Positions 28,345 to 44,360 are shown, numbered from the stretch's first letter. The stretch is 64,000 nt of DNA from an uncultured Candidatus Binatia bacterium (GCA_965213675.1 OZ243916.1:3872001-3936000), one strand, 5' to 3'. The notes: a model not told the origin generated them from the letters alone. Made by a program: numbers and translations.

Positions 28345-29820
28345 ATGTCACAGACCAAGCACTTTTCCACGGATGTCGCCATCATCGGGTCCGGCGGGGC
28401 GGGTATGGCCGCGGGCATCGAGGCGCGGGATGCGGGCGCGAACGCCATCGCCTTCGAGAAGGCGGCGGACCTGGGCGGCGCCGCCATCATTTCCGGCGGC
28501 GGCTGCCTCATCGTGGGCACGCCGATCCAGAAGGCCAACGGCATCGTCGACACGCCGGACCTGGCCTTCAACGACTGGATCAAGTGGGGTGGACCTTCGG
28601 CCGACGAGGTGTGGGCGCGCTACTACATCGAGCATTCGCTGCACGACCTCTATTTCTGGGCCGAGCGCATGGGGGTCAAGTGGGTGGACATGAAGCAGCA
28701 GGAGGGCAACACGGCGGTGCGCTGGACCCGGGCCGAACGCAGCGGCCTGGGCCTGATGACGCACCTCATCGAGGCCTTCCGCGAGCGCGGCGGCGAGATC
28801 GTTTCCAACACCGAAATCACCGGGCTCAAGCGCGACAACGGCCGGGTCACGGGCTTCGTGGGCAAGGACGCCGCCACGGGCGCGGACGTGGAGGTGGACA
28901 GCAAGGTCGTGGTGGTGGCCACCGGCGGGTTCAACTCGAACATCGACATGGTGTTCGAAGCCAGCCCGGGGCTCAAGGGCGAGCGGGTCATGGAGGGCTC
29001 GGGCCGGGGCTCCACCGGAACCGGCCACCGGCTGGTGCGGCAGGCTGGGGGCTACCTCACCCACATGGACCATATCTGGTTCTATGTCTACGCGACGCCG
29101 GACTATCGCGACCCCGCCCAGCGGCGTGGCCTGGTGTTCCGGCAGGCCCCTGGCTACATCTGGATCAATCAGCAGGGCCGGCGTTTCCACAACGAGTCGT
29201 TGTCGGGCGGCAACTCGGCCACGCCTGCGCTCATGGCCCAGGAACCGCGGCACGCCTGGGCGGTGGTGGACACGCCCATGACCGCCAAGCTCGAGATCGC
29301 CGACCCCTACTACCGCGCTGGCGACAAGGTGGACCGGGACAAAGTGCAGGAGTTGCTCGACAACTCGCCGTTCATCAAGAAGGCGGATTCGCTGGAGGAA
29401 CTGGGCCGGTTCATGGAAGTGGACGTGCCGGTGCTCCTCGATACCGTGGAGCGCTACAACCAGGCGTGCGCGCAGGGGCTCGACAAGGAACCCGAATTCG
29501 GCAAGCCCCTCAAGCTGTCCAAGAAGTTCGACACCCCGCCCTACTACGCCATCCAGATTTTCCCGCTGGCGCGCAAGAACTTCGGCGGCGTCAAGACCGA
29601 CATCCGCTGCCGGGCGCTGAACAAACACTTCGAGCCGATCCCGGGTCTCTACGCCGCCGGCGAGGTGGCGGGCATGGCGGGTGGCCACATCAACGGGAGC
29701 GCGGGGTTGGAGGGGACCATGCTCGGCCCGTCCATCTTCAGCGGGCGCGTGGCCGGCGGTTGGGCGGCACACGAGGCGGGCTGCGGGGAAGGCTTCGTCG
29801 GGATTCCCAACCGCGACTGA
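28345..29820 (+). CDS. FAD-dependent oxidoreductase (fumarate reductase/3-ketosteroid dehydrogenase-like flavoprotein)
   Basis: IIGSGGAG, VVATGGF and IPGLYAAGE motifs. Confidence 0.85.
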   Translation: MSQTKHFSTDVAIIGSGGAGMAAGIEARDAGANAIAFEKAADLGGAAIISGGGCLIVGTPIQKANGIVDTPDLAFNDWIKWGGPSADEVWARYYIEHSLHDLYFWAERMGVKWVDMKQQEGNTAVRWTRAERSGLGLMTHLIEAFRERGGEIVSNTEITGLKRDNGRVTGFVGKDAATGADVEVDSKVVVVATGGFNSNIDMVFEASPGLKGERVMEGSGRGSTGTGHRLVRQAGGYLTHMDHIWFYVYATPDYRDPAQRRGLVFRQAPGYIWINQQGRRFHNESLSGGNSATPALMAQEPRHAWAVVDTPMTAKLEIADPYYRAGDKVDRDKVQELLDNSPFIKKADSLEELGRFMEVDVPVLLDTVERYNQACAQGLDKEPEFGKPLKLSKKFDTPPYYAIQIFPLARKNFGGVKTDIRCRALNKHFEPIPGLYAAGEVAGMAGGHINGSAGLEGTMLGPSIFSGRVAGGWAAHEAGCGEGFVGIPNRD

Positions 29821-29830
29821 GGCGCCGGAC

Positions 29831-32239
29831 ATGGCAAACGATTCGCACGTCGAGAAGGTCCGGGGCTATTGCGTGTTGTGCACCGCCCACTGCGCCACCG
29901 TCGCTACGGTGGAAGACGGGCGCGTGACGCGGCTCGATCCCGATCACGATCACCCCAACGGCGGCGCCATCTGCGTCAAGGGCAAGGCCGCGCCCGAGTT
30001 GGTCTACAACGGTGAGCGCCTGAACTACCCCCTGCGCCGTACTCATCCCAAGGGCGCGGAGGATCCGGGATGGGAACGCGTGAGCTGGGACGAGGCCCTG
30101 GACGACATCGCGGGGCGGCTGCTGCGCATCCGCGAGCGTTACGGTGCCGAGGCCATCGCCATGGCCCGGGGCACCGCCAGCGGCACGTCGGTGGACGACG
30201 TGAACCAGTGGTCGACGCGCCTGCTCAACCGCTTGGGCAGCCCCAACTCGGTGTCCACGACCCACGTATGCAACTGGCACCGGGACACGGCGTTCAGTTA
30301 CACATTCGGCGTGGCGCAGCCGTCGCCGGACGTGCTCCACAGTGGCGCCTTCCTCCTGTGGGGACACAATCCCGCCTCCACGCAACTCATGCTGGCCCAG
30401 GACACCGCCACCGCGCGCAAGCGCGGCATGAAGGTGGTGGTGGTGGACCCGCGCCGCGTCGGTTTCGGGAACCAGGCGGACGCCCTCCTTCAGGTGCGCC
30501 CAGGGGCCGACGGCGCCTTGGCCCTGGCTCTCATCCACGTGTTGATCGACGAAGGGCGCCACGATGAAGCATTCGTGCGCGACTGGACCAACGGCCCGTT
30601 TCTGCTGCGCCGGCACACCGGTGAAGCGCTGACCGCGGCGGATGTGATCGCCGGTGGCAGCGCGGAGCAGTATCTGGTCTGGGATGAGGCGACGCAACGG
30701 GCGGTGGCCTACGATCCCGCCGGCCGCGTGTATGCGGCCGGTGGCGTTCGGCCGGCCTTGCGCGGTGAATTCCGCGTCACCACGACGACGGGCGCGCAGG
30801 TCCCATGCGAACCGGCGTTCGCCGCCTTGGCGCGGCTGGCTTGTTCGTATGCGCCGGAACGCTCGGAGCCGGTCACACGGGTTCCCGCGGACCAGGTGCG
30901 TGAAGCGGCCCGTATTCTGAGCGACAACCGCCCGGTAAGCATGTTCATGTGGAACGGCGTGGGCCAGCACACCAACGCCACCCAGACCAGCCGGGCCATC
31001 TCCATCCTGTACGCGTTGCTGGGAGATTTCGATGCGCCGGGGGGGAATCTCATGCTGCCCATGGCGTCGTTCCAGGGTGTCGACGGCAAGGAGTTCCTGC
31101 CGGCCGAGGCCGCCGCCAGACGCATCGGTCGGGACGAGCGGCCGCTCGGTCCGGCCGCGAACCCTGGGGCGTGCGCGGCGCCGGACATCTACGCGGCCAT
31201 CCTCGAAGGAAAACCGTATCCGGTGCGCGCGCTCATCAACCTGGGCTCCAACACGGTCATCTCCAACGGCGGCACGCGGCGCGGGCGCGAGGCCCTGTGC
31301 GCCCTGGATCTCGGGGTGGCCGCCGAACTCTTTATGACGCCCACGGCGCAGCTCTGCGATTACGTGCTGCCGGCCACGAGCTTCCTGGAGATGGATCACC
31401 TTGTGGGCGGGTTCCGGCACCGCGTGGATGCGCGCACCCACGTCCAGTACCGCCGGCGCGCGGTGGAGCCCTTGGCGGAACGGCGCTCGGACACTTGGTT
31501 CGTGTTCGAACTGGCCCGGCGCATGGGCTTCGGCGACGACTTCTGGGGCGGCGACCTGGAAGCCGCCTATGGCCATCAATTGGCGCCCACGGGCCTGACC
31601 CTGGACGATTTGAAGTCCCAACCGGGTGGCGTCACCCTGCCAACCACGCGGCGTTACCGGAAATACGCCGACACGGACGACCGGGGACGGCCCAAGGGCT
31701 TCGCCAACCCGTCCGGCCGGGTGGAGATCTATTCCCACCGGCTGGCGCAGCACGGCTTCTTCGCACTGCCGCAGTACGAGGAGCCGGCCCTGAGCCCCGC
31801 CAGGCGGCCGGACCTGGCGGCGGACTACCCGCTGGTGCTCACCAACGCCAAGTTCACCACGTTCATCCACAGCCAGCAGCGCGCCCTCCCCAGTCTGCGC
31901 AAGGCCGCGCCGGAACCCACCGCCGAACTGCATCCCGAAACCGCGGCCGAGCACGGCATCGGTCAGGGACAATGGATGGTGGTGGAGAGTCCCAAGGGCG
32001 CCATCAAGGTGCGCGGCAAGCTCACCCACCGAATCCTGCCCGGCGTCGTCTGCGTGCAGCACGGTTGGTGGCAGCCATGCGGCGAGCTCGAGCTTCCGGG
32101 CCACGACCCGTTTTCGGACGGGGGCGCCAATGCCAACGGTCTGGTGGACGCAGAGCACCGCGACCCCATCAGCGGCTCGCTGCCGCACCGCTCGGCCCTG
32201 TGCCGGGTGCGCCTGTTGGGAGACGCCCCTGGCCATTGA
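29831..32239 (+). CDS. Molybdopterin (DMSO reductase family) oxidoreductase with N-terminal 4Fe-4S cluster
   Basis: CVLCTAHC...CVKG, RLNYPLRR, DYVLPA and a C-terminal dinucleotide-binding domain. No Tat signal seen. Confidence 0.9.
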   Translation: MANDSHVEKVRGYCVLCTAHCATVATVEDGRVTRLDPDHDHPNGGAICVKGKAAPELVYNGERLNYPLRRTHPKGAEDPGWERVSWDEALDDIAGRLLRIRERYGAEAIAMARGTASGTSVDDVNQWSTRLLNRLGSPNSVSTTHVCNWHRDTAFSYTFGVAQPSPDVLHSGAFLLWGHNPASTQLMLAQDTATARKRGMKVVVVDPRRVGFGNQADALLQVRPGADGALALALIHVLIDEGRHDEAFVRDWTNGPFLLRRHTGEALTAADVIAGGSAEQYLVWDEATQRAVAYDPAGRVYAAGGVRPALRGEFRVTTTTGAQVPCEPAFAALARLACSYAPERSEPVTRVPADQVREAARILSDNRPVSMFMWNGVGQHTNATQTSRAISILYALLGDFDAPGGNLMLPMASFQGVDGKEFLPAEAAARRIGRDERPLGPAANPGACAAPDIYAAILEGKPYPVRALINLGSNTVISNGGTRRGREALCALDLGVAAELFMTPTAQLCDYVLPATSFLEMDHLVGGFRHRVDARTHVQYRRRAVEPLAERRSDTWFVFELARRMGFGDDFWGGDLEAAYGHQLAPTGLTLDDLKSQPGGVTLPTTRRYRKYADTDDRGRPKGFANPSGRVEIYSHRLAQHGFFALPQYEEPALSPARRPDLAADYPLVLTNAKFTTFIHSQQRALPSLRKAAPEPTAELHPETAAEHGIGQGQWMVVESPKGAIKVRGKLTHRILPGVVCVQHGWWQPCGELELPGHDPFSDGGANANGLVDAEHRDPISGSLPHRSALCRVRLLGDAPGH

Positions 32240-32320
32240 CGTACCTGCATGTTCCGGCCTGGCGAACCGTGGCGCAGCCTGAACAGCGGAAATCCCGAAA
32301 AGGCCAGGCGGAGGAGACAC

Positions 32321-33394
32321 ATGGTTCTCGTACTCAAGAATGAACAACTGGAAGACTTGGTGCCCATGCCCGAGGAAATCGACGCCATCGAGCAGGCCTA
32401 CCGCGAGATGGGCGAAGGCACCGCGGTCAACTCACCCCGCGCACGGCTCCGGGTGCAGGCTCCCGGCAAGAAGCCCGGCTTCCAATACTACTTCAACAAC
32501 ATCATGGGCCTTGTGCCTGGCATGAAGTCCATGGGGCTCCGCATCGACTCGACCTTTTCCGATGAAGAGGAAGTGGCGGGTACCAAGCGGCGCATCTATC
32601 CCGGCGACTACGTGGGTCTCGTGCTGCTCTTCGACATGGAGGACTGCTCGTTGCTGTCCATCATGGACGACCACTACATCTCCATCTTCCGGGTCGGCGC
32701 CACCAGCGGCGTGGCAGCCAGGCACTTGGCGCGCGAGGACGCCCGGGTCATGGGTCTCGTGGGCTCGGGCGAACAGGCCAAGACCCAGCTCCTGGCCACC
32801 TGCGCGGTGCGTCAACTCGACAAGGTGAAGGTATTCAGCCCCACTCGGGCCAACCGCGAGCGGTTCGCCGAGGAGATGACCGAGAAGGCGGGGGTCGAGA
32901 TCGTGCCGGTGCATTCGGCGGAAGAAGCCGTGCGCGGCAGCGACATCGTCACCGCCGCCACCAACACGGTGGACCCGGTCATCAACGGCGAGTGGCTGGA
33001 GAAGGGTACGTTCGTCAACAGCATCGTCGGCGGCGACAGCTACCTCGCCCGCTACGAACTGGACGACGCGGTGTTCGAGCGCGCCGACCTCATCGTCGTG
33101 GGCTTCCGCAAGCAGATCTTCCTCGACCAGCAGGCCGAGATCTACCCACGCATCCAGCGTGGCCTCATCAAGGAAGAAGACCTGCACGAACTGAGCGAAC
33201 TGCTCACCGGCCAGTGCCGCGGCCGCGAGAGCGACGATGAGATCATCGTCTTCAAGAACAACACCGGCATGGGTATCCAGTTCGCCGCCACCGCCCGCAT
33301 CCTCTATGAAGCCGCCCGCAGGAAGGGCATCGGCACCGAACTCCCCTCCGAGCTGTTCATCACCGACCGCAAAGGGAAGACCTACTCGCCATAG
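32321..33394 (+). CDS. Ornithine cyclodeaminase/mu-crystallin family protein
   Basis: RVGATSGVAA, GSGEQA and FKNNTGMGIQF motifs. Confidence 0.88.
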   Translation: MVLVLKNEQLEDLVPMPEEIDAIEQAYREMGEGTAVNSPRARLRVQAPGKKPGFQYYFNNIMGLVPGMKSMGLRIDSTFSDEEEVAGTKRRIYPGDYVGLVLLFDMEDCSLLSIMDDHYISIFRVGATSGVAARHLAREDARVMGLVGSGEQAKTQLLATCAVRQLDKVKVFSPTRANRERFAEEMTEKAGVEIVPVHSAEEAVRGSDIVTAATNTVDPVINGEWLEKGTFVNSIVGGDSYLARYELDDAVFERADLIVVGFRKQIFLDQQAEIYPRIQRGLIKEEDLHELSELLTGQCRGRESDDEIIVFKNNTGMGIQFAATARILYEAARRKGIGTELPSELFITDRKGKTYSP

Positions 33395-33497
33395 GGCGTG
33401 GATGCCCAACGGCGCAGGGAACGGTACGACCTGCATTAGCATTATAATCTTCGGTGGATAGGGAACCTTCGTTCTGCGACACCTTTCGTCCGGTGCG

Positions 33498-33630
33498 GGT
33501 CATCCACCTGGAGTTGCTGGAGAAGGGTCCCTTCGTCAACGGCGACAGCGACGTCGTCCCCTACGAATTGGACGACGCTGTGTCGGAGCGCGCCGACATC
33601 ATCGTCGTGGGCTTCTGAAAACAGATCTTC
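33498..33630 (+). repeat. Degenerate direct copy of an internal segment (32977-33121) of the cyclodeaminase gene
   Basis: Aligns by eye (GCTGGAGAAGGGT..TTCGTCAAC..GAGCGCGCCGAC.TCATCGTCGTGGGCTTC..CAGATCTTC) with a 12-bp deletion and a new TGA. Confidence 0.85.
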
Positions 33631-33970
33631 TGGAGATTACCCAAAAAACAATCGCCATACTGGTCAACCAAATTGTCGAATGGGCCGTTGTTCCGAGCCA
33701 GGACTCGTCGCTAAAACCGGGCAGAAACAGGAAACATGAAACGTACACCGAGATGAAGAAGACCAGAAGGGCCACCAGTAACTTGAGGGTCGATTCGGGC
33801 AGCCGTAATCGTTGACCATAAGTGAACCAAATGACGGTGAATAGACCAAATTCAACATGCCAGGTCGAGAAAAAGGACCCAAGGTAAAACTCGTCCAACA
33901 TGAAAAATACGGCGAGGATCAGCGCGCCCAGGAGGAACGCTGTGGTGAACACAATCGGTCGAATCATCAT
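33599..33970 (-). CDS. Hypothetical 4-TM membrane protein (candidate immunity protein)
   Basis: 123 aa with four hydrophobic segments and a GAGG RBS. AT-richer than the genome. Directly downstream of precursor 1. Confidence 0.7.
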   Translation of the reverse strand: MMIRPIVFTTAFLLGALILAVFFMLDEFYLGSFFSTWHVEFGLFTVIWFTYGQRLRLPESTLKLLVALLVFFISVYVSCFLFLPGFSDESWLGTTAHSTIWLTSMAIVFWVISRRSVFRSPRR

Positions 33971-34012
33971 GACATACCTCTGTGGTAGTGGACGTTCTGA
34001 ATAGTTGGAATG

Positions 34013-34064
34013 GCCAGATCAGTCATGGGCGTCACCCACGGCGGGCCGCCACGACTGATCTGGC
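34013..34064 (-). terminator. Strong hairpin just 3' of precursor 1
   Basis: GCCAGATCAGTC...GACTGATCTGGC perfect 12-bp outer stem. No clear U-tract, so it may be a stabiliser or attenuator. Confidence 0.55.
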
Positions 34065-34074
34065 ACTTGGACGG

Positions 34075-34569
34075 TTATTTTCCGTCGCCGTCGAGGTCAA
34101 TTGCCGTACAGGCCGCCACCGCTGTGCCTGAGCTGAGACCAACACCCGCTCCGGCCGCAGCGCCGGCCACGGGATTGCCAGTTGCTGCAGTTACGGCAAC
34201 GGTAGTGGCCGCGGTGGCGGCAGTGCTGAGGGCGCCTCCCACCGTCAGGCATAGAGTTTGAAGAGCCACCTCAGCGACGGAAAGGCCGAAGTGGGAGGTC
34301 TTCTCAGTCTCTTCCTCCGGGGCCGCGCAGCTGTCGTCGCTGTCGGAGAGGTTGTCGCCGCCGTTGCTGCCGTCATTGGCGCCCGTGTCGTCGCACGAGC
34401 AGGAACAACTGCAACTGCACGCACAGCCACAATTGCATCCGCACCCACAACCGCATCCGCACCCACAGCCACAACCCTCGACTTCCAGGTCGAGCCCCTC
34501 GTGTTCGGGATCGAGAATCCACGGCGCCACCATGGTTCGGTCTTTCTCGGAATAGGCCAATAACTCCAT
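34075..34569 (-). CDS. Precursor-like protein 1: acidic leader + (GC)n(SC)m tract with 14 Cys + acidic linker + hydrophobic Ala/Gly/Thr bacteriocin-like tail
   Basis: GGAGG RBS 8 nt before the ATG. Varied codons in the Cys tract. Two paralogues within 5 kb. Confidence 0.85.
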   Translation of the reverse strand: MELLAYSEKDRTMVAPWILDPEHEGLDLEVEGCGCGCGCGCGCGCNCGCACSCSCSCSCDDTGANDGSNGGDNLSDSDDSCAAPEEETEKTSHFGLSVAEVALQTLCLTVGGALSTAATAATTVAVTAATGNPVAGAAAGAGVGLSSGTAVAACTAIDLDGDGK

Positions 34570-34598
34570 TTTGTACTCCTCCCTCTTTAAAGTTTAAA

Positions 34599-34655
34599 GC
34601 GGATGGAACCGCTCTCACAATTACAATCGCGGTGCAGGGACCGGACCTTAGGGGG
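34599..34655 (-). promoter_or_regulatory. Conserved upstream element of the precursor cassettes (copy 1)
   Basis: Aligns with 39127-39180 at the same 30-nt offset from codon 1, and partly with ~37484-37533. Confidence 0.6.
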
Positions 34656-34765
34656 ATGTGGTGATTTTTTTGAAAAATTGCGGAAAAGTGTTTCAGAAAA
34701 CAGGTTACCCCACTTTACCGGGCGTCGTGGCAAGGCGTCCTCACTTGGCGGGTGCGAGCCTCGTC

Positions 34766-34820
34766 TGCCAATGGCAACCGAAGACAGCACACTTTTGGCA
34801 ATCGAAAACTGCACAGTTCC
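34766..34820. mobile_element. Solo IS21-family-like end
   Basis: TG start followed by two 24-bp-spaced repeats, TGGCAACCGAAGACAGCACACT and TGGCAATCGAAAACTGCACAGT. No istA/istB nearby. Confidence 0.55.
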
Positions 34821-34922
34821 GAGAAGGGCGTGAGTTCAGATCTGGCGCTCTACGGTTGGTTCCGACCGGAAGCGGAAGACGTACTCGCCACAGGGTGTTG
34901 GCGCTTACCGCGGACGGCACGA

Positions 34923-36887
34923 TCAGTTCAACGGACCCGTCCGGCCGCCGAGGTGCCGTGCCAGAAACCGTTCGACTCGCCGGGCGAATTTCAGCCTGTT
35001 GGCGGGTTTCCTGATTCTATGTCCCTCTTTCGGAAAGACGAGATAGTCGAGGGACGCGTCTCCCTTTCGAAGTTCCTTAAGCAATCGGTCGAAGTGTTCC
35101 TTGGACACGCGATTGTCCTTGCCTCCATGAAAGAGCAAAAGCGGCCCTTGGATGCGCGACGCGTGGGTGACGGGGGAGTGCGCCACGAGTTCCTGAAAAT
35201 CGGCCTCTTTGCGAGTGTCGCCGGCAAAATGGAGCCACCATGAAAGCCCTTCGGGATTGGAACGAAAACTGTCTACCAGGAGAGTCAGGTCCGTGGGCCC
35301 CATGGTGCTGATCCCGGCGGCAAACTTGTCGGGTGTCAGGGCCATGGCCATCAACGCCGCATACCCACCGTAACTGTCGCCAAGGATGGCCACCCGGTCC
35401 GGGTCGGTGTGTCCCTGCGCAATGGCCCAGTCCAGTGCATCGACGAGATCGTCCTGCATCTTCCTGCCCAATTCCCTGCGCCCCTTATCCATGAATGCCT
35501 TGCCCGCTCCTGCCGAACCTCTGAAGTTCACCGCGAGGACGGCATAGCCGCGATTGGCGAGAAACTGCGTCAGGTTGTCGAAACCCCACCGGTCGAACAT
35601 CCACGGCCCGCCGTGGACCTTGACGACCGTGGGAAGACGTTTGCCGTCCGTTCCCTTGGGCAGCGTCAGAAAGCCATGAAGGCGGAGTCCGTCCCGTGCC
35701 ACGAAGTGGATCGGCCGCATCTCGGACAAGTCGTCCGCGTACGGGCTCAAGCGATGTTCCGCCAGAAGCTCCCTGGTTCCTGATCGACGGTCGACCCGGA
35801 CGGTGACCGGAGCCTGGCGGTCGGTCTCCACCAGCAACACGAGTTGCATGTAATCGATGCTTCCGTTGACAAGTTGGAACAGAACCGGTCCTGTCCCCAA
35901 GACCCGTTCGAGGTCTTCTCGTAACTCAACGTCATAAAAGTGATACCGAGGCAGCGGGTCGAAGTACCGAACGGCAACGGGGTTGCCGGTGGTGCTGTCG
36001 AGCCAGACACGCGACACTTCAGCGTCGGGCGCTTCGAACGTCAATTCCTCGATACCCGTTCGAAGATCCAGTTTGATGACCGACTGTTTGTCTCTTCCCG
36101 CATTTGTCGGAAGGTAGAGGGTGGTGCCGTCTTCCAGAAGGTTCGCATGATAGGTCGCGACGTCCCGAAATGTCCCGTTCAATACGTTGTCCCATGCACC
36201 GCCGGGGCGTCGCGCCTGGATGTTCCATCCGCCGTCTCCCGTTTTCCGGATCCGCGCCAACACCTCCCTGTCGGGGTTGACGATCCAATCCGCCGTGTGG
36301 CCGTCGTTTCTGGCCAACAAGTCGTGTTTACCCGTGTGAATGTTGACTTGGTAAAGGTCATAGGAACCGCGGTCACGAAGATTCATTTGCACGAGCACGA
36401 TATCGGGATTCCGAAGAAGAGGGACAGCGCGTCTGACGCTCACCCCGTGGAACGGCGTCAGGTCGCGCGATGCTCTTTCGGGGCGGTCGGTATCGGCCAG
36501 GAACAGGTGAATGTTGCGGTCTCGGCCTGCGCCCCGAAGAAACAACACGTGCCTGCTGTCGAGTGCCCAAGTGAAGCCCGGGACGAAACTGAGATCCTTC
36601 ATCACCAAGTCGCGCTCCTCATTCAGATGACGAACGCGAAAGCTGAGTTTGCGCGGCTCGATGGCGACCCACGCCAGCCGTGTTCCATCCGGCGAAATAT
36701 GAATCTGCCCGCTATTGCGCGGCAGGCCGTAGAATTCTTCCGCCGGTATCAGGGCGGGCAAGGACGCTGCCCGAAGTACGGGGTGAGTGGCGTCAATGCC
36801 GGTTGTGCTGGCATCCGCCAGGCGCCAGGAAAGGCATGTGAACAGCAACGACAGCGTGATCAATCGTAGGAGCATCATCAACCTCAA
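34923..36887 (-). CDS. Secreted S9 family (prolyl oligopeptidase/acylaminoacyl peptidase-like) peptidase
   Basis: Signal peptide, VHGGP, GDSYGG nucleophile, KDNRV Asp and EGH His. Confidence 0.92.
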   Translation of the reverse strand: MRLMMLLRLITLSLLFTCLSWRLADASTTGIDATHPVLRAASLPALIPAEEFYGLPRNSGQIHISPDGTRLAWVAIEPRKLSFRVRHLNEERDLVMKDLSFVPGFTWALDSRHVLFLRGAGRDRNIHLFLADTDRPERASRDLTPFHGVSVRRAVPLLRNPDIVLVQMNLRDRGSYDLYQVNIHTGKHDLLARNDGHTADWIVNPDREVLARIRKTGDGGWNIQARRPGGAWDNVLNGTFRDVATYHANLLEDGTTLYLPTNAGRDKQSVIKLDLRTGIEELTFEAPDAEVSRVWLDSTTGNPVAVRYFDPLPRYHFYDVELREDLERVLGTGPVLFQLVNGSIDYMQLVLLVETDRQAPVTVRVDRRSGTRELLAEHRLSPYADDLSEMRPIHFVARDGLRLHGFLTLPKGTDGKRLPTVVKVHGGPWMFDRWGFDNLTQFLANRGYAVLAVNFRGSAGAGKAFMDKGRRELGRKMQDDLVDALDWAIAQGHTDPDRVAILGDSYGGYAALMAMALTPDKFAAGISTMGPTDLTLLVDSFRSNPEGLSWWLHFAGDTRKEADFQELVAHSPVTHASRIQGPLLLFHGGKDNRVSKEHFDRLLKELRKGDASLDYLVFPKEGHRIRKPANRLKFARRVERFLARHLGGRTGPLN

Positions 36888-36893
36888 GAACAG

Positions 36894-37444
36894 TCATTCG
36901 AGCACTGGAGCGACCTTGGTCGGAGGAGGAAAACGCCCGGAACGACGACCGGCGCTTCTCTCCCACTTTTGTTTACAGACGCCGCGGAACTGGCCGGTCA
37001 ATCCTCCGTACACTGCGTGGTTCACGATTTCATCGGTGTTGTCGATGACCCCGTGCACGATGTCGTCGAAACAGTCGTTGTTGCCACCGTCGTCCCAGGC
37101 GGCGTTGCTGTCATCCGAATCGGCCGCATCGGCGTTGGCGCCCGTGCTGTCTCAGGTGCAAGAACAACCACAACCACATCTGCACCCTTGGATTTCGGGG
37201 TCCAGGTCGTCGTCAGGGGCGTCAAGCATCTCGTGTGGTGTCTGGTTAATTCGGGTCATAATCTGCGGGTCTTTTTGGCCGTCGGCTGCGTTGCTCTTCC
37301 GCGCGTGGTACCCGCCACTGCTCGTCATGGCGCCTTGCCGACGACAAAAAATCCTCCGCAGATTATGACGCGTATTAACCAGACACCACACTAGGAAATG
37401 GCAATACGCTCGTCTTGAAACGCCTATTTGATGGCCAGGATCGT
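36894..37444 (-). pseudogene. Precursor-like gene 2, disrupted (ACG at start position, amber, MITE insertion, TGA at a Cys position)
   Basis: After removing the MITE it reads TILAIK*AFQDERIAIS*MLDAPDDDLDPEIQGCRCGCGCSCT*DSTGANADAADSDDSNAAW..., then stays open for 85 codons after the TGA to 36894. Confidence 0.75.
37234..37390. mobile_element. MITE family C inserted in the leader of precursor 2
   Basis: 35-bp TIRs (33/35 match) TGTGGTGTCTGGTTAAT.CG.GTCATAATCTGCGG, with CTCG/CTAG flanks. Confidence 0.85.
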
Positions 37445-37794
37445 TGTTGTCTCCTCCTTGTCTGGGTCATGCGTTTCGTTACGTTAAAGCGCCTACATCA
37501 ATCAGATCGGTGGCGGGGAGCCGAACTTTAGGGTCGAATGAAAGTCTCTGGCGTTTTTTTGTCGTCCGGTGCGTGAGGGGACACCGAGGCAGGATCGTTC
37601 CGTCCCGGAAGGCAGGTGCAGGGTCTCGGGGGGAAACCGCGCGTGCAACATCCAATGCGGAAGCGGTGGAATCCCACCAGGAGGCAGGAAAGACGTACCT
37701 GCGGTGGCCAGGACTCGGTCAGTTTGTGATTCGGCGATGCTTGACGGCGCGATCAGTTACCCACAGGAGTCCCGACGAGGCCGCGTCTGTCAGC

Positions 37795-38865
37795 TTACTC
37801 TGTCTGATCGGTCTTTTTCGACCATTCCAGTGCCATGCGCCGCGCTTCCGCGACCTGTTCGGGCGTCATTTCCTGTTCCAATTTGTCCCGCGCGGCCATC
37901 CATGGTTGCCTGTCCCCGGAGGCAGCCATGGCCAGCCACATGTATGCGAGCACAAGATCGCGTCCAACTCCATGCCCGTTTATGTACATTAGACTTAGTT
38001 GGAACCGCGCCAACGCCAATCCCTCTTCCGCGGCCTTACGGTACCATTTGGCGGCCTTGACATAGTCGACGGGCACACCGTGGCCCTTCAAATGCATCAA
38101 CCCGAGGTTGTACTGTGCGGCGGCGTGTCCGTGCTCAGCCGCGAGGCGGAACCAATGAATCGCCTTGGTGTAGTCTTGGGCCACCCCGTGTGCCTTGTCA
38201 TACATCGTTCCCAAGTTATACTGGGCGCGCGGGGCGCCCTGTTCCGCGGCGGAGCGGTACAAGCGCAGCGCCTCGTCATAGTCTCGGGGTACGATGGTCC
38301 CCGAGTGGTACATGACTCCGAGTTGGGTCTGCGCCAAGGCAAATCCTTGTTCAGCCGCGGAGCGGTACAAGCGCAGCGCTTCGCGGAGGTCCTGTTGAGT
38401 GCCGCGTCCATGGTCATACATCGTCCCAAGGTTGTACTGTGCGGCCGGGATCCCCTGTTCGGCTGCGGAGCGGTACCAGCGCAACGCTGCGTCAAGGTCT
38501 TTCGGGATGCCCTGGCCCAAGACGTACATGGTTCCGAGATTGTACTGTGCCTTCCCGTGCCCTTGCTCGGCGGCAAGGCGGTACCAACGCCTCGCTTGGT
38601 TTGCATCCTGCGGTACACCGTGGCCGTTGAAGTACATGGCACCGAGGTGGTACTGGGCGTCCGCGTGTTGTTGCCGGGCGGCCGTGTTGCACGCGGTGAC
38701 CAGGTTGGTCAGGTCCGCGCGACGGTCCAGACATACGTCGAGAGGCATCTCTTGGGAGGGTGTCGTGGGTTGGGTCGCGGCAAAGCCGCTGGTCAGGACG
38801 ATCCAGAGCGTGCCCAATGTCAATGTGAGAACTGGTGAACGCAAAGCGCGAGCGTTTGTAGCCAT
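37795..38865 (-). CDS. Secreted Sel1-like repeat protein (7 repeats)
   Basis: Seven 36-aa AQYNLG.MY..G.GV.QD...A..WYR.AAEQG repeats after a hydrophobic N-terminal segment. Confidence 0.92.
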   Translation of the reverse strand: MATNARALRSPVLTLTLGTLWIVLTSGFAATQPTTPSQEMPLDVCLDRRADLTNLVTACNTAARQQHADAQYHLGAMYFNGHGVPQDANQARRWYRLAAEQGHGKAQYNLGTMYVLGQGIPKDLDAALRWYRSAAEQGIPAAQYNLGTMYDHGRGTQQDLREALRLYRSAAEQGFALAQTQLGVMYHSGTIVPRDYDEALRLYRSAAEQGAPRAQYNLGTMYDKAHGVAQDYTKAIHWFRLAAEHGHAAAQYNLGLMHLKGHGVPVDYVKAAKWYRKAAEEGLALARFQLSLMYINGHGVGRDLVLAYMWLAMAASGDRQPWMAARDKLEQEMTPEQVAEARRMALEWSKKTDQTE

Positions 38866-38950
38866 GGCGTTCCCTATCCCTTGTTCTGTGGAACCATTGG
38901 TCCCGGCCGATTGTTGATTGCATCCCTCCCGCGGAAGAGTTGCAAGCTCG

Positions 38951-39097
38951 TCAGTTTCTCCGACGTGAGGGGTCGCACGAGCAGCTACACCCACATCCAC
39001 ACCCATGCACCTCCAGGTCCAATTCCTCGTGGTCGGGGTCGATGACCCATGCGGTCAACACGGCCCGATTCTCCTTGGACAAGGCAAGCGGTTCCTT
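38951..39097 (-). CDS. Precursor-like peptide 3, not in the ORF track: (KEPLALSKENRA)VLTAWVIDPDHEELDLEVHGCGCGCSCSCDPSRRRN
   Basis: Gapless 16/32 identity to the precursor 1 leader. Codon 1 is AAG behind AGGAGG. An alternative GTG start at 39061 lies behind AAGGAG. May be a pseudogene. Confidence 0.7.
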   Translation of the reverse strand, partial: KEPLALSKENRAVLTAWVIDPDHEELDLEVHGCGCGCSCSCDPSRRRN

Positions 39098-39126
39098 ACG
39101 ATATCCTCCTGTTGTGACGCCTGAAC

Positions 39127-39180
39127 GCGGCTATCACCGCCCTCAGAAGTACAATAGCCAAGGCAAGGTCGGGCTTACGG
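39127..39180 (-). promoter_or_regulatory. Conserved upstream element of the precursor cassettes (copy 3)
   Basis: GCGG-N5-ACCGC.CTCA.AA.TACAAT.GC shared with 34599-34655. Confidence 0.6.
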
Positions 39181-39234
39181 AAGGGATCGTTAACCTTTTA
39201 ATAGATATGTAAAGTTCATTCAATACCCTGCGGG

Positions 39235-40512
39235 CTACGCCTTCACCGGCCTCCTGACCAGCAGGGTCAGCCCGGCGCACAAGATCTGCACGCAGATGAA
39301 CAGCACCAGGGAGAGGTTGTAGCTGCCGGTGTAGTCGTAGAGGTAGCCGAAGAACGGGGCGCCGATGGCGGCGCAGAGGAGGAGGATGGGCAGGCTGAGG
39401 CCGCGCACGGTGCCGAGGGAGATCCGGCCGAAGTAGTTGGCCCACATGACTTCCTGTAGCACATGGGCGCCGCCGAGGCCGGAGCCGTAGAGGAAGAACG
39501 CGACGTACAGGCCCGGCAGGCCGCCGGTTTTCATGGCCACCACCAGGCCCGCGGCCTGAGCCACGAACATGAGCGCGGTGGCCCGGCGCACGCTGACGCG
39601 CTCGCTGATGAAGCCCCACAGGAGTCCGGAGCCGAGCTGGGTGGCGGCCATGACCGTGGCCACGGACGCCGCGGCCAACATGGAGTGGCCCAGGTCCGAG
39701 ACGTAGGCGAGCACGTGCAGGTTGAAGCCGGCGATACCGATATCGACGGTGCTGAAGATGAAGGTGATGAGCCAGCAGGTCGGGGTGTGCAGGGCTTCCC
39801 GGCGCGTCCAGGTGACGTCCTCGGGGGCCGGACCCACCGGGCGGGAGCCGGCCCGGCCGCGCCTGTCCGGAGCCGTGGTTGCGGCATGGACCGGATCGCC
39901 GTCGGGGCGCAACCCCATGTCCTCCGGGCTCCGGCGCATCCACAGCGCCGCCGGAATCAGGGCCAGAATCACCACCAGCCCGCCGAACAGGGTCCAAACC
40001 GAACGCCACCCGATGGCGGTCAGGAGCCAGGCGACCACCAGCGCGATGGTGGTCTTGGAAACGCCCTGGCCCAGATGGGCGATGGCCAGCGCCCGGCCGC
40101 GCTGGCGTATGAACCAGCGGGAGATGGCGACGTTGACCACGAAATAGCACACGAAGGCGTGGCCGATGGAGACCAGGGCCACGCGCACGGCCGCGAACTC
40201 CCAGAAGGTCCGCGCGTAGCCCAACAGCAGAAAGCCCGCCACCGAGATCACCGAACCGATGACCATGAGCCGGCGGGCGCCGTGACGGTCCAGCAACGAG
40301 CCGATCCAGGGTGTGACTCCGGCGTAAGCCACCAGCTCGGCGGAGCGCATCAGCGAGAACGTGCCCCGCGAAACCCCCATCTCGGCCGTAATGGACTTGA
40401 GCATGACGCCCAGGGTGCTGGACAGATAGAAGGCGCAGGCCACCTGCACGAGAAAGCCGGTGGCGACGATGTACCAACCGTAGAAAACCCTGGGTCTTGC
40501 CGTTGTCCGCAT
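39235..40512 (-). CDS. MFS transporter (OFA/MCT-like)
   Basis: FYGWYIV, GSLLDRHGARR, RWF.RQRGRA and about 12 TM segments. Confidence 0.9.
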   Translation of the reverse strand: MRTTARPRVFYGWYIVATGFLVQVACAFYLSSTLGVMLKSITAEMGVSRGTFSLMRSAELVAYAGVTPWIGSLLDRHGARRLMVIGSVISVAGFLLLGYARTFWEFAAVRVALVSIGHAFVCYFVVNVAISRWFIRQRGRALAIAHLGQGVSKTTIALVVAWLLTAIGWRSVWTLFGGLVVILALIPAALWMRRSPEDMGLRPDGDPVHAATTAPDRRGRAGSRPVGPAPEDVTWTRREALHTPTCWLITFIFSTVDIGIAGFNLHVLAYVSDLGHSMLAAASVATVMAATQLGSGLLWGFISERVSVRRATALMFVAQAAGLVVAMKTGGLPGLYVAFFLYGSGLGGAHVLQEVMWANYFGRISLGTVRGLSLPILLLCAAIGAPFFGYLYDYTGSYNLSLVLFICVQILCAGLTLLVRRPVKA

Positions 40513-40789
40513 TTGTTCTTGCCCTGAGCTGGACCGCCGCAGGTGATGCCGGGCGACGAATTCGCTCCTGGTTTGCCTCGCCCGCACGGGTCCGTGGTCC
40601 GGACTGAATGCGCGCTTCAGGCCAGGGACACCATGATCAATGCGCTCTTCGACTGTGCTTCGCGAAGCCTGTGTCGTGTCTGTCGAAGGGCGCCAATCTT
40701 TCCGGGCGGCGGTTGATCGGAGTTTCCCCAGCCTGGCGGCTCCGGCCAAGCCCATGACTTGACACAGGGCGCGCCACTGCTCGCATGGA

Positions 40790-42109
40790 TCAGAGTTTCC
40801 CCTGTCCCATGGCTCCGGCCTCCGCCGGCAGGCGCGGTCTCCGTATCGTCAGCGTCAGCACGGATGACACCAGCAGCATGCCGATGAACAGGTAGAAGGA
40901 GATCGCGTAGGATCCGGTGTAGTCGTTCACGAAACCGAAGAAGGGCGGCCCGCACACGCCGCACAGCAGGACTATCTGAAGCGCGGCGCCACGGACGGTA
41001 CCCAGCGAAACCCGGCCGAAGTAGTTGGCCCACATGACTTCCTCCAGCACCTGGGCGCCGCCAAGCCCCAGTCCATAGAAGAAGAAACCGAGGTAGATGG
41101 CCGAGAGGTCCTGTGCGTTCGCTGCCAGGTAAAGACCGGCGGCCTCCACCAGAAACAGGAGGGAAACGACCTTGCGGACGCTCACCCGCTCGCCGACGAA
41201 ACCCCACAGCAAGCCGGAGGTCGCTTGCGTGCCGGCGATCACGGTCATGGTCAGAGCGGCCTGGACCTGGCCGAATCCCAGGTCCGATACGTAGGAGACG
41301 ACATGGAGGTTCAGGCCGGTGATGCCCACATCCACCATGCCGAAGGCGAGGATGATCAACCAGAACGTGGACGTACGCCGCACCTGTTGCCGGGTCCAGC
41401 GGACTTCCGGTTCCTGCGCGCCCCCGTCGCCGGCTCGCCGTTCCTGTCCTGCGCCCGGGCGCCCCATGGGGTCGCCGCCCCCGTCGGGCTGAAGCCCCAT
41501 GTCCTCCGGGCTTCGGCGCATGAAGATGGCCACCGGTATGACCGCCAGCACCACCACCAGCCCGCCGAACAGGGTCCACACTTGGCGCCAGGCGATGAAC
41601 GTCAGCAACCAGCCCACCACCGCGGAGATGGTTATCTTGGCGATGCCGTGCCCCAGATGGGAAATGGCCAGGGCGCGCCCCCGCATCCGCACAAACCACC
41701 GGGCCACGGTGACGTTCACCACGAAGTAACACACCAGCGCGTGGCCCACGGCCAACAGGGTGACGCGTACGGAGGCGAACTCCCAGAACGAAGCCGCCTG
41801 CCCGAGCAGCAGAAATCCGACGGCCGAGAGGACCGCGCCGGCAACCATCATGCGCCGCGGTCCGTATTGGTCCAGCTTGGCTCCGATCCACGGCGCCATG
41901 AGGGCGTACAGGAGGTGCTCGCCCGAGCGCAGGAGCGAGAAAACGCCTCGGGAAACGCCGAGATCGGTGGTGACGGGTTTCAGGAAGACGCTCAGGGTGC
42001 TGGATAGAAAGAAGGCGCAGGAGATGTTGGTCAGAAAACCGGCGCCGACGATGTACCAGCCATGGAAAAGGCGCGGTTTCCTGGCGGGATACGTGGAATC
42101 AGCGGTCAC
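40790..42109 (-). CDS. MFS transporter, close paralogue of 39235-40512
   Basis: FHGWYIV, GAKLDQYGPRR and WANYFGR.SLGTVRG shared with the neighbour. Confidence 0.9.
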   Translation of the reverse strand: MTADSTYPARKPRLFHGWYIVGAGFLTNISCAFFLSSTLSVFLKPVTTDLGVSRGVFSLLRSGEHLLYALMAPWIGAKLDQYGPRRMMVAGAVLSAVGFLLLGQAASFWEFASVRVTLLAVGHALVCYFVVNVTVARWFVRMRGRALAISHLGHGIAKITISAVVGWLLTFIAWRQVWTLFGGLVVVLAVIPVAIFMRRSPEDMGLQPDGGGDPMGRPGAGQERRAGDGGAQEPEVRWTRQQVRRTSTFWLIILAFGMVDVGITGLNLHVVSYVSDLGFGQVQAALTMTVIAGTQATSGLLWGFVGERVSVRKVVSLLFLVEAAGLYLAANAQDLSAIYLGFFFYGLGLGGAQVLEEVMWANYFGRVSLGTVRGAALQIVLLCGVCGPPFFGFVNDYTGSYAISFYLFIGMLLVSSVLTLTIRRPRLPAEAGAMGQGKL

Positions 42110-42352
42110 GGTGCATGTATCTTTCCTCGGCGCGCGGCAAGCCGCGGGTGCGACAACGGTCGGCCCTGCGGCGGGCCACCGCAATCGGCTCAGGCAGATT
42201 TACTAGGCAATCGGCTCCCCGGAGTCAATCGTTGGTGGGGCGTCCGTGGGAGCGGGGCCGGCGCCGTTCGATTCCGCTTCACGAAGTCTGGCCTCGCCGG
42301 AGCCCGCTGTCGCCATGGATCCGAGGTTCTTTGGGAGTCTGACGGGAGGCGC

Positions 42353-43603
42353 CTATCCCCCGGGCCGGCTTTCCGGCCACAACCGCCGGTCGAAGCGGCG
42401 CATCCAGTCGAGGCTCGTAACCCAAACCGCCAGGACCGAGACGATCAGGAGTCCGTTGGCCACGCTGAAGGATGCGAAATAATTCCCCGTGAGATCGTGC
42501 AGCGCGCCCCCCAGCCAGGCGCCCATGGCTCCGCCGAAGCCCACGCTGGCGACGGAGAGGCCGAAGATGGTCCCGAAGCCCCTGCCGGCGAAGATGTCGG
42601 CGGTAATGGCGGAGAGGATCACGGCGCGCGAGCCGAAGGCGATGCCGAAGCCGCCCACGTAAACGTAAAGCAGCCACGGGTGAGCCGTGTCCGCAGCCAT
42701 CATGAGGGCGGTGACCCCGACGGACGCGCACAGGACGTTGAGAGTGTAGGCCGTGGTCTTCGTCAGGGTGTCCGCGATGTAGCCGAAGGTGACCCGGCCG
42801 GCGGCGCTGACAAACGCCATGACGCCGAATACCCCCGCGGCCCAGATGTGTCCGTAGCCGATGTCCACCACGTGGGCCACCTGATGGGTGATGACCAGCA
42901 CCGTGCCGATGGACCCCAGCATCCGCGAGATGAACAGGCTCCAGAACTGGAGGCTTCGCAACGCCAGGCGAACCGACCATTGGCCGGCGTCCGTGCCGCC
43001 GCCGCTTCTCACCGGCGGCCGCGCGTCGTCCGGACTGGGGCGGTAGGTGCTCCACACCAGGGGTAGCACGGCGATGACGATGGCCGCCGCCAGCGCCTGG
43101 AACACCCGCGGCCAGCCCCACAACGAGATCAGCCACTGACAGAGGGGGGAAAGGATGAGGGTCCCCACTCCCACCGCCCCGTAGACAATGCCCAGCACCA
43201 GCCCCCGGCGCGTGGGGAACCACTCCGACACCACCACCACGTGGGGCACCACCCCGCTGGCCGCGAATCCCAGGGACATCACCACACCGAAGTAGAGGTA
43301 GAGCTCCCACGCGGTGCGCGCCTGGCTGCACAGCATCAGGCCGGCGGCCAGAAGCACCCCGCCCGCGGCCACCACCCGCCGTGGCCCCAGATGGTCGGTG
43401 AGCCGTCCAATGAAGGGCGACACCAGGGCATCCATCACGAGGCTGGCGGACTGAATCCCGGCGGTGACCCCGCGGCTCCGGTGGAACGTATCGAGGAGAG
43501 CCACGAAGAAGACCGGAAAGGACGTGTGCAGGCCGCGGACGAAGCCAAACGTCAGCGCGGCCGCGCCGATGAGGTGCCAGCCGTGGAAGATCTTGCGCGT
43601 CAC
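42353..43603 (-). CDS. MFS transporter
   Basis: FHGWHLI, GRLTDHLGPRR and WFPTRRG motifs. Confidence 0.9.
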   Translation of the reverse strand: MTRKIFHGWHLIGAAALTFGFVRGLHTSFPVFFVALLDTFHRSRGVTAGIQSASLVMDALVSPFIGRLTDHLGPRRVVAAGGVLLAAGLMLCSQARTAWELYLYFGVVMSLGFAASGVVPHVVVVSEWFPTRRGLVLGIVYGAVGVGTLILSPLCQWLISLWGWPRVFQALAAAIVIAVLPLVWSTYRPSPDDARPPVRSGGGTDAGQWSVRLALRSLQFWSLFISRMLGSIGTVLVITHQVAHVVDIGYGHIWAAGVFGVMAFVSAAGRVTFGYIADTLTKTTAYTLNVLCASVGVTALMMAADTAHPWLLYVYVGGFGIAFGSRAVILSAITADIFAGRGFGTIFGLSVASVGFGGAMGAWLGGALHDLTGNYFASFSVANGLLIVSVLAVWVTSLDWMRRFDRRLWPESRPGG

Positions 43604-43876
43604 GATGTCAGGTCTGTTTCCTGGTAGCCCTGGAAGCGGATGGTTCCCCTTTACTGGTGCGCCGGGGGAATGGCAAACGGCGCGCCCGAACAACGCCGGC
43701 GGCTTGCATACACGGCGCGCCGGACGGTCTGCCGTCCACGAAAAACATGCGTGGGTTTCGGCGGAGTCGCGAAGAAAATCTTGACTTGGGCGGGTTGGAT
43801 ACGTAATTTGAAAGCAATAATAAAATGGTTGGAAAAGGGAACCGGCCGCGGTCTAATAGGGAAGGACGGTACGGCG

Positions 43877-44311: not shown

Positions 44312-44360
44312 CGCACCATTCAGGCCCTCTTCGGAGTCTGTGCGGGGATTCAGGGCGGGT

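Follow-up and report, generated by a model that had tools for sequence, protein, structure and literature searches.

Leader-bearing Gly-Cys/Ser-Cys precursors with polymorphic C-terminal domains, probable substrates of an MNIO acting in trans, in an uncultured Candidatus Binatia bacterium

Multinuclear non-haem iron oxidases (MNIOs) form a fast-growing class of peptide-modifying iron enzymes, whose known Cys-directed products are small copper chelators that are usually encoded next to the enzyme and exported by the Sec route. The siderophore-microcins (class IIb, e.g. MccE492) combine a ribosomal toxin with a post-translational metallophore (a non-ribosomal catecholate glycoconjugate on a C-terminal Ser-rich tail), ABC/HlyD-type export and a small adjacent immunity protein. 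Here, we analyzed a stretch of 64,000 nucleotides from an uncultured Candidatus Binatia bacterium (GCA_965213675.1 OZ243916.1:3872001-3936000, hereafter the window, with positions counted from its first nucleotide) in which three minus-strand paralogues have in common a leader (W..LD....LDLE.HGC), a strictly alternating X-Cys tract and a promoter-like upstream element. The explanation that we regard as probable is that such genes encode leader-guided MNIO substrates that are produced in trans, leave the cell by a type I system and carry bacteriocin-like cargo, the enzymes being encoded elsewhere on the chromosome.

Among described systems, the captophorins (Buf1/Buf2, oxazolin/HvfA, fontiphorin) offer a close comparison. 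According to the accessible text of PMC13097082, MNIO relatives in these systems make copper-binding 5-thiooxazoles on Cys, and FonB, a thiooxazole-forming MNIO, prefers a Cys-Gly dyad; Cys-Gly dyads occur throughout the tract of the family described here. The family resembles the captophorins in its enzyme, a member of the MNIO superfamily for which BufB and HvfB are the best models, in its Cys-rich substrates, in a precursor-MNIO-partner order found in two related genomes (G020 and G015, with a third, G003, holding a precursor remnant) and in a partner fold of the TglI/NGO1945 kind. Captophorin-type systems, as far as their accessible descriptions go, have Sec signal peptides and DUF2063 partners; the present family instead has an acidic leader with no Sec signal peptide and a partner without DUF2063 (PME-type 2), which is the arrangement described in the accessible text of PMC12452194, where signal-peptide-less precursors accompany “PME-type 2” partners. 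Furthermore, no DoxX gene was seen in the neighborhoods examined, the clusters having type I secretion genes, TauD, a short-chain dehydrogenase/reductase (SDR) and an S9 peptidase instead; the precursors are mostly dispersed and would be modified in trans; up to ~20 Cys stand in strict dipeptide alternation along the tract; and polymorphic C-terminal domains are accompanied by immunity-like neighbors.

Methanobactins (MbnA/MbnB/MbnC) are alike in that their copper chelator is formed by an MNIO from X-Cys units of a peptide that has a leader and no signal peptide, a chemistry that would have its counterpart here. They differ in that MbnB is a distant match to the family MNIO (40 bits against a cut-off of 325; PDB E ~1e-7), no MbnC was found, and the substrates of the present family exceed theirs 5-10 times in length and have far more sites as well as extra domains. 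A further group, adjamnio-I, is catalogued as uncharacterised in Antoine et al. 2025 (PMC12452194, Table 2), with 100 sequences of 122-293 amino acids (aa), 8-21 Cys and the order precursor-MNIO-PME-type 2. Like the present family, it has no signal peptide and no known signature, and our long forms fit its length, Cys count and gene order; unlike it, the family is very rare in the databases searched (100 published sequences for adjamnio-I), and the accessible text of its paper mentions no toxin-immunity pattern, trans arrangement or linkage to type I secretion. The two may overlap, a comparison of summary figures and not of sequences. An earlier reading of the window, made from the sequence alone (the sequence-only reading), had recognized no named family here; given the catalogue entry adjamnio-I, this may not hold strictly. 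No Pfam or NCBIfam family matches the window open reading frames (ORFs). A full-text literature search returned no paper joining an MNIO substrate to a toxin domain, an immunity gene or type I secretion.

The three window members differ in their state of preservation:
34075-34569, minus strand: copy 1, the sole intact window member (164 aa; leader profile E 1.5e-19).
36894-37441, minus strand: copy 2, a pseudogene (alignment to the intact genes of G003 and G002).
38951-39097, minus strand: copy 3, a truncated remnant (leader profile E 3.6e-18; alignment with the full-length orthologue that precedes a Sel1 gene in G012).

The ORF listing and the raw sequence bore out three paralogous ORFs where the sequence-only reading had placed them. 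That reading had counted three cassettes; the paralogues exist, and what they amount to is one intact gene (copy 1) and two remnants, not three working cassettes. Its comparisons of the copies also stood, with a leader of the form ...LD[LP]E[VI]xGC common to copies 1-3 and TGAN and DSDDS.AA common to copies 1 and 2. Copy 1 comprises a 31-aa acidic leader (MELLAYSEKDRTMVAPWILDPEHEGLDLEVEGC before the tract), 14 uninterrupted X-Cys pairs (7 GC, NC, GC, AC and 4 SC, then DD), an acidic linker (DDTGANDG…SDSDDSCAAPEEE) and a Gly/Ala(/Thr)-rich domain between two Cys, ending in IDLDGDGK; a strong Shine-Dalgarno sequence (GGAGGAG) lies 7 nt ahead of its ATG. In a six-frame scan of the 4.53-Mb assembly (21 contigs; at least four X-[Cys/TGA] pairs, a criterion that also returned many chance runs in wrong frames), leader plus tract were confined to the three window sites and their near-identical duplicates on contig C17, which argues that the pattern is not due to chance. 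Nor is the tract a simple DNA repeat, since GGN and TGY codons are mixed. Searches of Pfam and NCBIfam with the three window ORFs gave no match except a sub-threshold one to FibroRumin (16 bits, cut-off 45, over the Cys tract). Within the genome, a weak match on contig C20 (E 0.03) falls in a non-coding repetitive stretch. The locus was listed for four DNA runs, all of one sample, and for no RNA run.

Relatives elsewhere in the genus define a common plan, in which a strong Shine-Dalgarno sequence precedes MQ(I/L)xDFS…IAVPWxLDxxxDxLDLE(I/V)HGCGCGC, a variable (GC)n(SC)m tract, an acidic linker and a C-terminal domain. Within the leader W, L, E and G, then C-G-C-G, are invariant, and the leader and first three GC pairs are near-invariant. 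Long forms have 144-270 residues with 12-17 Cys; short forms (66-80 aa) consist of the tract without cargo. Direct inspection found no signal peptide, the N-terminus being acidic and devoid of a hydrophobic core in all 21 aligned members. Searched with a profile of the window copies, most genomes of the genus proved to hold relatives, and 16 genomes of neighboring genera yielded none; a 21-sequence leader profile matched 14 of 15 genus genomes and none of 235 genomes from 104 other genera (class sample, 251 genomes). Five further genus genomes all hold the family, for a total of 26 (G041 was left out of this search); only G014 (2.7 Mb, 98% complete) lacks it among the searched genus genomes, and it also lacks the MNIO and the partner. 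HMMER against 1.84 billion representative proteins gave 32 matches at E up to 1e-3, of which 23 were inspected (the inspection left out four long multi-stretch matches, P0023, P0026, P0028 and P0035): 22 are apparent true members, the exception being P0029, a repeat protein unrelated to the family. Among 5.8 billion proteins, a word-indexed search returned 10 matches. A degenerate-pattern search recovered only four related loci, the profile search of genomes being far more sensitive. The family is thus rare and, among the genomes searched, found in one Binatia genus only. Across the leader (W…GCGCG), pN/pS is 0.26 at a pS of 0.66 (34 sequences, 561 non-independent pairs), which places the leader under purifying selection. 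A leader-profile search of the genome and its relatives, which the sequence-only reading had suggested, thus turned up homologues beyond the window, and neutral evolution of the leader was not borne out. Clustering of the ORFs in 31 neighborhoods placed the family at no fewer than four syntenic chromosomal sites.

A candidate modifying enzyme emerged from these neighborhoods. A GC precursor opens the G020 cluster, followed by an MNIO (PF05114, E 3e-67, with BufB and HvfB as the best-scoring curated models, neither reaching its cut-off), a 253-aa partner, a 730-aa HlyB-type ABC protein, HlyD (TIGR01843, 335 bits, above cut-off), TauD, SDR and S9; G015 has the identical eight genes in identical order. 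A family member also heads the cluster in G006, where S9 lies between precursor and MNIO, and in G003 only a 3′ remnant of the precursor lies upstream of the MNIO cluster. Tabulating neighbors, another suggested check, thereby yielded a recurrent candidate modifying enzyme and exporter (MNIO, partner, ABC, HlyD) in four relatives. PF05114 occurs in 26 of 28 genus genomes, four of which have extra copies. G006 has three MNIO genes in all, and a second, partly degraded MNIO-partner-ABC-HlyD cluster lies a few kb from its complete one, with two ORFs of no recognised family between (C1:3770000-3789500).

In the genome of the window itself, the corresponding genes are scattered. Its MNIO (C1:145471-146358) is followed by the partner, a 608-aa ABC protein and an SDR (C1:142-146 kb), with no precursor upstream; HlyD (311 bits against a cut-off of 208.65) and TauD lie at C1:213.6-215.9 kb, and the S9 of the system is the one in the window. 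The MNIO is 79-80% identical to the precursor-adjacent MNIOs, inside the orthologue range, and its best models are BufB (206.7 bits, cut-off 310) and HvfB (187.3 bits, cut-off 360), both under threshold. The dispersed precursors modified in trans that the sequence-only reading had offered as one of two options thus gain support from precursors at the head of MNIO clusters in relatives and from the genome's own MNIO, partner and ABC genes 3.7 Mb away. RiPP (ribosomally synthesised and post-translationally modified peptide) mining that demands an enzyme-adjacent precursor would miss the family in 24 of the 28 genus genomes searched.

Strong matches to the partner (E < 1e-86) occur in exactly the 14 genus genomes of the class sample that hold the family, and elsewhere in the class sample matches are at E 2e-6 or worse. 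Its AlphaFold2 model (pLDDT 69.7) has TglI (8hi7 and 8hci; probability 0.97-1.00) and NGO1945 (3dee; 0.99) as the three best PDB matches, and these two proteins are, in the accessible text of PMC12452194, the two reference structures that define MNIO partner proteins. Co-folding of MNIO, partner and leader scored 0.70-0.73, against 0.60 with the MNIO swapped and 0.00 and 0.04 with the leader swapped; we draw no verdict from these values. Double-glycine-leader bacteriocins pair a C39 peptidase-ABC exporter with a leader that ends in GG, GA or GS; here, the 730-aa ABC protein aligns to HlyB from residue 4, so that an N-terminal C39-like region is present, and the leader ends in HG-C.

That the proteins are unmodified, metallothionein-like or redox proteins, with MNIO proximity in a few genomes a coincidence, is improbable in our judgment: alternating Gly-Cys could bind soft metals without modification, and most family genes do not adjoin an MNIO, but a metallothionein would not require the conserved 31-aa leader that is under purifying selection, four genomes share the precursor-MNIO-partner order, and the family is co-distributed exactly with the partner. 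Still more doubtful is cyclisation by a YcaO enzyme to azol(in)es, as in thiazole/oxazole-modified or microcin B17-like precursors. The Gly-Cys and Ser-Cys runs do resemble microcin B17 cores (the profile match to microcin B17 is at chance level, E 6.8), and the genome has one YcaO-domain ORF (C1:66085-67095, inside a 794-aa open frame); that gene, however, lies 3.8 Mb from the window and beside no family member, and none of the recurrent annotated gene clusters in the 31 neighborhoods is a YcaO, whereas an MNIO is adjacent in four genomes. The statement of the sequence-only reading that the window holds no MNIO or YcaO proved correct, the genome's sole PF05114 match being at C1:145.5 kb and its sole PF02624 match at C1:66 kb; LanB/C/M and radical SAM enzymes, named in the same statement, were not searched for.

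A second link between the scattered loci is an upstream DNA element, found ahead of each window copy with an nhmmer profile built from the upstream regions of 34 relatives:
34577-34654, minus strand: upstream element of copy 1 (E 1.2e-10), with CTAAGG-N16-CGATT, a GC-rich hairpin-like stretch and the Shine-Dalgarno sequence.
37454-37533, minus strand: upstream element of copy 2 (E 2.9e-8), kept ahead of a dead start codon.
39105-39180, minus strand: upstream element of copy 3 (E 7.3e-5).

That a profile of relatives matches all three sites agrees with the shared element noted in the sequence-only reading. Alignment of 260 nt from 36 genes showed a bipartite CTAAAG-N16/17-CGATT ~60-75 nt before the ATG of nearly all family genes at all chromosomal sites, a geometry that suggests a promoter, perhaps of the extracytoplasmic function (ECF) type. 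Searched as a regular expression, the motif also precedes the genome's own MNIO operon (C1:146501) and its own HlyD-TauD operon (C1:216032), with ~0.5 matches expected by chance in the genome (a rough, composition-based estimate). Two more matches lie before an Rpn/YhgA-like nuclease gene (C1:3404339) and before the gene of a 215-aa secreted lamin-tail-like protein (C1:3864162), the latter 7.8 kb before the window. The element ties the precursor, MNIO and HlyD loci together, whether as a regulon signal or as a relic of a once-contiguous cluster. The copy of the element ahead of copy 2 may now drive the S9 gene.

Beyond the tract, the family diverges. Clustering of the last 85 residues of 26 long forms gave 11 BLAST groups (without composition correction, the acidic linker lumps all types together), with further types among the metagenomic members, and the C-terminal domains fall into at least eight types that co-vary with the adjacent gene:
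DGDG[KE] type, including copy 1 (4 of 4 long forms): a 123-143-aa family of four-transmembrane (4-TM) proteins immediately downstream.
YDPN.DE.F..T..RG.G.MSSP type (4 of 4 long forms): a secreted Sel1 protein directly downstream, in three chromosomal locations.
Four further Gly/Ala-rich types (13 of 13 long forms): a ~150-aa MxFEFMGAFR membrane family downstream.
One further type (2 long forms): the MxFEFMGAFR membrane protein upstream.
Ala/Glu-rich tails (2 long forms): the MNIO next.
Degenerate (1 long form): no adjacent partner.

This co-variation supports the other option of the sequence-only reading, a conserved tag fused to variable cargo with a downstream cognate gene, and the pattern of tails and neighbors is, by analogy, that of polymorphic toxins and their immunity genes. 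Six metagenomic members end in a SxHYSGxAxD…HxHxE domain that matched Sonic hedgehog-N in a PDB profile search (E 4e-5) and that we would assign to the LAS zinc-peptidase fold, Hedgehog-type; Pfam gave only weak HH_signal matches (E 0.013-0.02) for the ten metagenomic members searched. Transposases and a group II intron adjoin several loci. Similarities to polymorphic toxin systems thus comprise a conserved N-terminus, at least eight C-terminal types with partner families of their own, orphaned partners, decayed toxin-like genes and mobile elements. The family departs from them in its N-terminal module, a RiPP-style leader and modification tract rather than a T5/T6/T7 secretion domain, and in that no C-terminal type significantly matches a known toxin family, the LAS/Hedgehog-like signature in metagenomic relatives being the only one seen.

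Three genes lie downstream of the window copies:
33599-33970, minus strand: membrane protein of 123 aa, candidate cognate immunity protein for the copy 1 C-terminal domain.
34923-36887, minus strand: secreted serine peptidase of the S9 prolyl-oligopeptidase family (PF00326, E 4.5e-49; GDSYGG nucleophile motif).
37795-38865, minus strand: secreted protein with seven Sel1 repeats (PF08238, E 8.9e-78), candidate immunity protein.

These are the 4-TM, S9 and Sel1 neighbors that the sequence-only reading had named. For the 123-aa protein, a crude hydropathy count gives two segments, against the four transmembrane segments of that reading; its gene has a G+C content of 49% against 65% for the window, and its homologues (tblastn, 41-58% identity) were found only directly downstream of three other DGDG[KE]-ending genes (G016, G004 and G017), with no further homologue found by tblastn in the window's genome. 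A search of the ESM Atlas with the C-terminal half of copy 1 gave a best score of 0.77, under a meaningful level, with a Gly-zipper_Omp cluster at rank 4. On the proposed reading, copy 1 and the 4-TM gene would be a live pair.

Copy 3 tells of the opposite fate. At 39097-39095, AAG stands in place of the ATG present in every relative; the Shine-Dalgarno sequence before it is intact, and TTG at 39082 is the sole remaining start (ORF 38951-39082, minus strand). The leader is intact, and the core reads GC GC GC SC SC D, five pairs followed by DPSRRRN and a stop; it nearly abuts sequence whose homologue in G012 is the end of the full-length orthologue and the intergenic DNA after it, and therefore the linker and C-terminal domain have been deleted. 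Sel1 orthologues directly follow all four full-length YDPN.DE.F..T..RG.G.MSSP genes at three chromosomal sites, which makes the window Sel1 gene a candidate, putative immunity gene that has outlived the lost C-terminal domain of copy 3.

These observations bear on an unlikely alternative, in which the products are plain copper- or metal-buffering metallophores of the captophorin/bufferin kind that have no antagonistic role, the C-termini serving as anchors or solubility domains and the neighbors as docking or handling partners. In its favor, the closest models of the MNIO are BufB and HvfB, enzymes whose products give protection from copper in the accessible text of PMC12452194 and PMC13097082, and the alternative would also accommodate short forms made of the Cys tract only, MNIO-adjacent precursors without an immunity-like gene and the lack of a significant toxin-family match for any C-terminal type. 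It does not sit well with at least eight C-terminal types on one conserved N-terminus in tight co-variation with the next gene, a gutted gene whose partner is kept (copy 3 and Sel1), nearby transposases and a partner gene of low G+C, or the LAS/Hedgehog-type peptidase tail of some members. Polymorphic tails, a retained Sel1 gene, mobile elements and a peptidase tail fit turnover of toxin-immunity pairs better than housekeeping metal handling.

Taken together, the data support both options of the sequence-only reading at once, precursors modified in trans and a tag on variable cargo. In the mechanism that we propose, the ~31-residue acidic leader (invariant W, L, E and G, then HGCGCGC) would be bound by the TglI/NGO1945-like partner, acting in the manner of a RiPP recognition element (RRE), and the BufB/HvfB-like MNIO would turn the cysteines of (Gly-Cys)n(Ser-Cys)m into copper-binding thiooxazole-type heterocycles, as its nearest characterised enzymes suggest. 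From the observed gene linkage, the product would be exported by the HlyB-type ABC protein, the HlyD adaptor and an outer-membrane channel, with the linked TauD-like dioxygenase, SDR and secreted S9 in putative tailoring or processing roles. The variable C-terminal domains, mostly Gly/Ala-rich segments closed by two Cys and in one metagenomic type a Hedgehog/LAS zinc-peptidase, would be bacteriocin-like cargo, and the adjacent small membrane protein, or the periplasmic Sel1 protein, would be the cognate immunity factor, as the observed co-variation suggests.

Several points weigh against this mechanism. As to chemistry, the MNIO lies below the curated cut-offs of BufB and HvfB, so its reaction could differ (e.g. 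oxazolone/thioamide, or a new one). The partner has neither DUF2063 nor any other Pfam or NCBIfam match, and its model is moderately confident, with TM-scores of 0.23-0.45. No PF03412 (Peptidase_C39) match was found in the 730-aa ABC protein (E up to 0.01) and the genome's own 608-aa ABC protein lacks the N-terminal C39-like domain, which leaves leader cleavage without an explanation. As to cargo, no C-terminal type has a significant Pfam match, the short forms of 66-80 aa carry none, two of the three window copies are dead, and the MNIO-adjacent precursors (G020, G015 and G006) have Ala/Glu-rich tails with no obvious immunity gene, so that not every tail need be a toxin. Rather than marking a regulon, the element before the MNIO and HlyD genes could be left over from precursor genes since deleted. 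One genus is the source of the linkage, the co-distribution and the shared element alike, and these are not independent; all functional claims are drawn from gene context within it.

On the probable reading of MNIO substrates with bacteriocin-like cargo, the known picture of this enzyme class would be extended to leader-dependent, signal-peptide-less substrates with up to ~20 adjacent sites and type I export, and to genome-dispersed precursors that carry exchangeable toxin-like domains, each with a cognate protective gene. Should the chemistry be borne out, the tract would be a natural scaffold for processive MNIO catalysis on a minimal X-Cys repeat, and metallophore biosynthesis would be linked to bacterial warfare in an uncultured phylum (Binatia). 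More tentatively, the long forms might act as “Trojan-horse” bacteriocins, in which an N-terminal poly-thiooxazole copper chelator is imported by the metallophore route of the target and drags a periplasm-acting toxin domain with it. The toxin domain could conceivably be a membrane-inserting Gly/Ala hairpin or an LAS-type wall peptidase, and the short forms (66-80 aa) might, just as speculatively, be the legitimate metallophore whose receptor is exploited. Such molecules would parallel the siderophore-microcins in a ribosomal, in-chain form and would be the first case of an MNIO product serving as a weapon, with scattered biosynthetic genes maybe held together by a shared promoter element. The likeness has its limits in that the metallophore would be in-chain and made from an N-terminal Cys tract by an MNIO, and uptake by a receptor is speculative.

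Copy 2 is broken four ways, and two further features lie within it:
37230-37394, minus strand: miniature inverted-repeat transposable element (MITE) that interrupts copy 2; ~165 bp long, it is bounded by terminal inverted repeats (GTGTGGTGTCTGGTTAAT…).
37152-37154, minus strand: in-frame TGA on a Cys position of copy 2 (ORF and sequence), also present in the C17 duplicate.

The start-equivalent codon is ATC (37441-37439), codon 6 is TAG, and the MITE interrupts the leader at Pro-Trp. The end of the MITE contains an ATG and supplies copy 2 with its apparent but false N-terminus, MTRINQTPH; an insertion of this element into a gene can thus mimic a plausible start. The core reads GC RC GC GC SC T, then TGA, with the frame open to 36894. 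The leader has LDPE, its Pro standing at a position that is hydrophobic (Leu or Val) in 34 of 34 relatives, and the C-terminal region resembles the G003/G008 type (…C.DD…GV.D…). The MITE family has 205 high-scoring segment pairs genome-wide (~90-96% identity, blastn), and one copy, near-identical to the copy 2 5′ region, lies just upstream of the MNIO promoter region (C1:146656-146818).

A reading of copy 2 as a selenoprotein, with selenocysteine at the TGA, was dropped as scarcely credible. The genome has tRNA-Sec (C1:323213-323307), selA and selB, and the TGA falls exactly on a Cys position, is followed by 86 more open codons and is retained in the C17 duplicate; against this, copy 2 starts with ATC, has TAG at codon 6 and holds the 165-bp MITE inside its leader, there is no notable hairpin (RNA downstream of the TGA folds no better than shuffles, z = -0.25), and no other member among the 36 ORFs examined has an in-tract TGA, which is one base change from a Cys codon. 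With the gene multiply broken and the RNA fold at shuffle level, the TGA is a further lesion and not a recoding site. As a side observation, C1:2713784-2717334 was noted with the tRNA-Sec locus, and tRNA-Sec, selA and selB together indicate that the genome makes selenoproteins.

The S9 peptidase had been assigned to copy 2 as a private partner, a view that the relatives contradict. It falls in the same protein cluster as the S9 of the precursor-MNIO clusters in G020, G015, G006 and G003, of which it is a recurrent component, and S9 also lies downstream of the variable cassette in six loci of the window's syntenic site.

The duplicated segment on contig C17 (G000, C17:60000-75173) matches the window at ~37000-45000 with 95-98% identity and covers copy 3, Sel1, copy 2 (with the same TGA and MITE) and major facilitator superfamily (MFS) genes. 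Since contamination is 8%, C17 probably stems from a second strain in the bin and not from a true duplication. From 39235 to ~44000 on the minus strand, the window holds three to four paralogous MFS transporter genes (~404-440 aa each), an array that forms one conserved border of a variable cassette site across the genus; an ornithine-cyclodeaminase-like gene (32249-33394) forms the other. A short ORF at 33454-33618 (plus strand) repeats the C-terminal part of the adjacent ornithine-cyclodeaminase-like protein (…YELDDAV.ERAD.IVVGF); a fragment has thus been duplicated where the cassette site ends, which suggests a past rearrangement. Farther out, a molybdopterin oxidoreductase lies at 29681-32239, and at 29681-32347 both strands carry very long antisense ORFs (e.g. 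869 aa opposite an 852-aa oxidoreductase), an artefact due to a G+C content of 65%; when genes were called naively, such antisense ORFs outscored real small genes, including most family genes.

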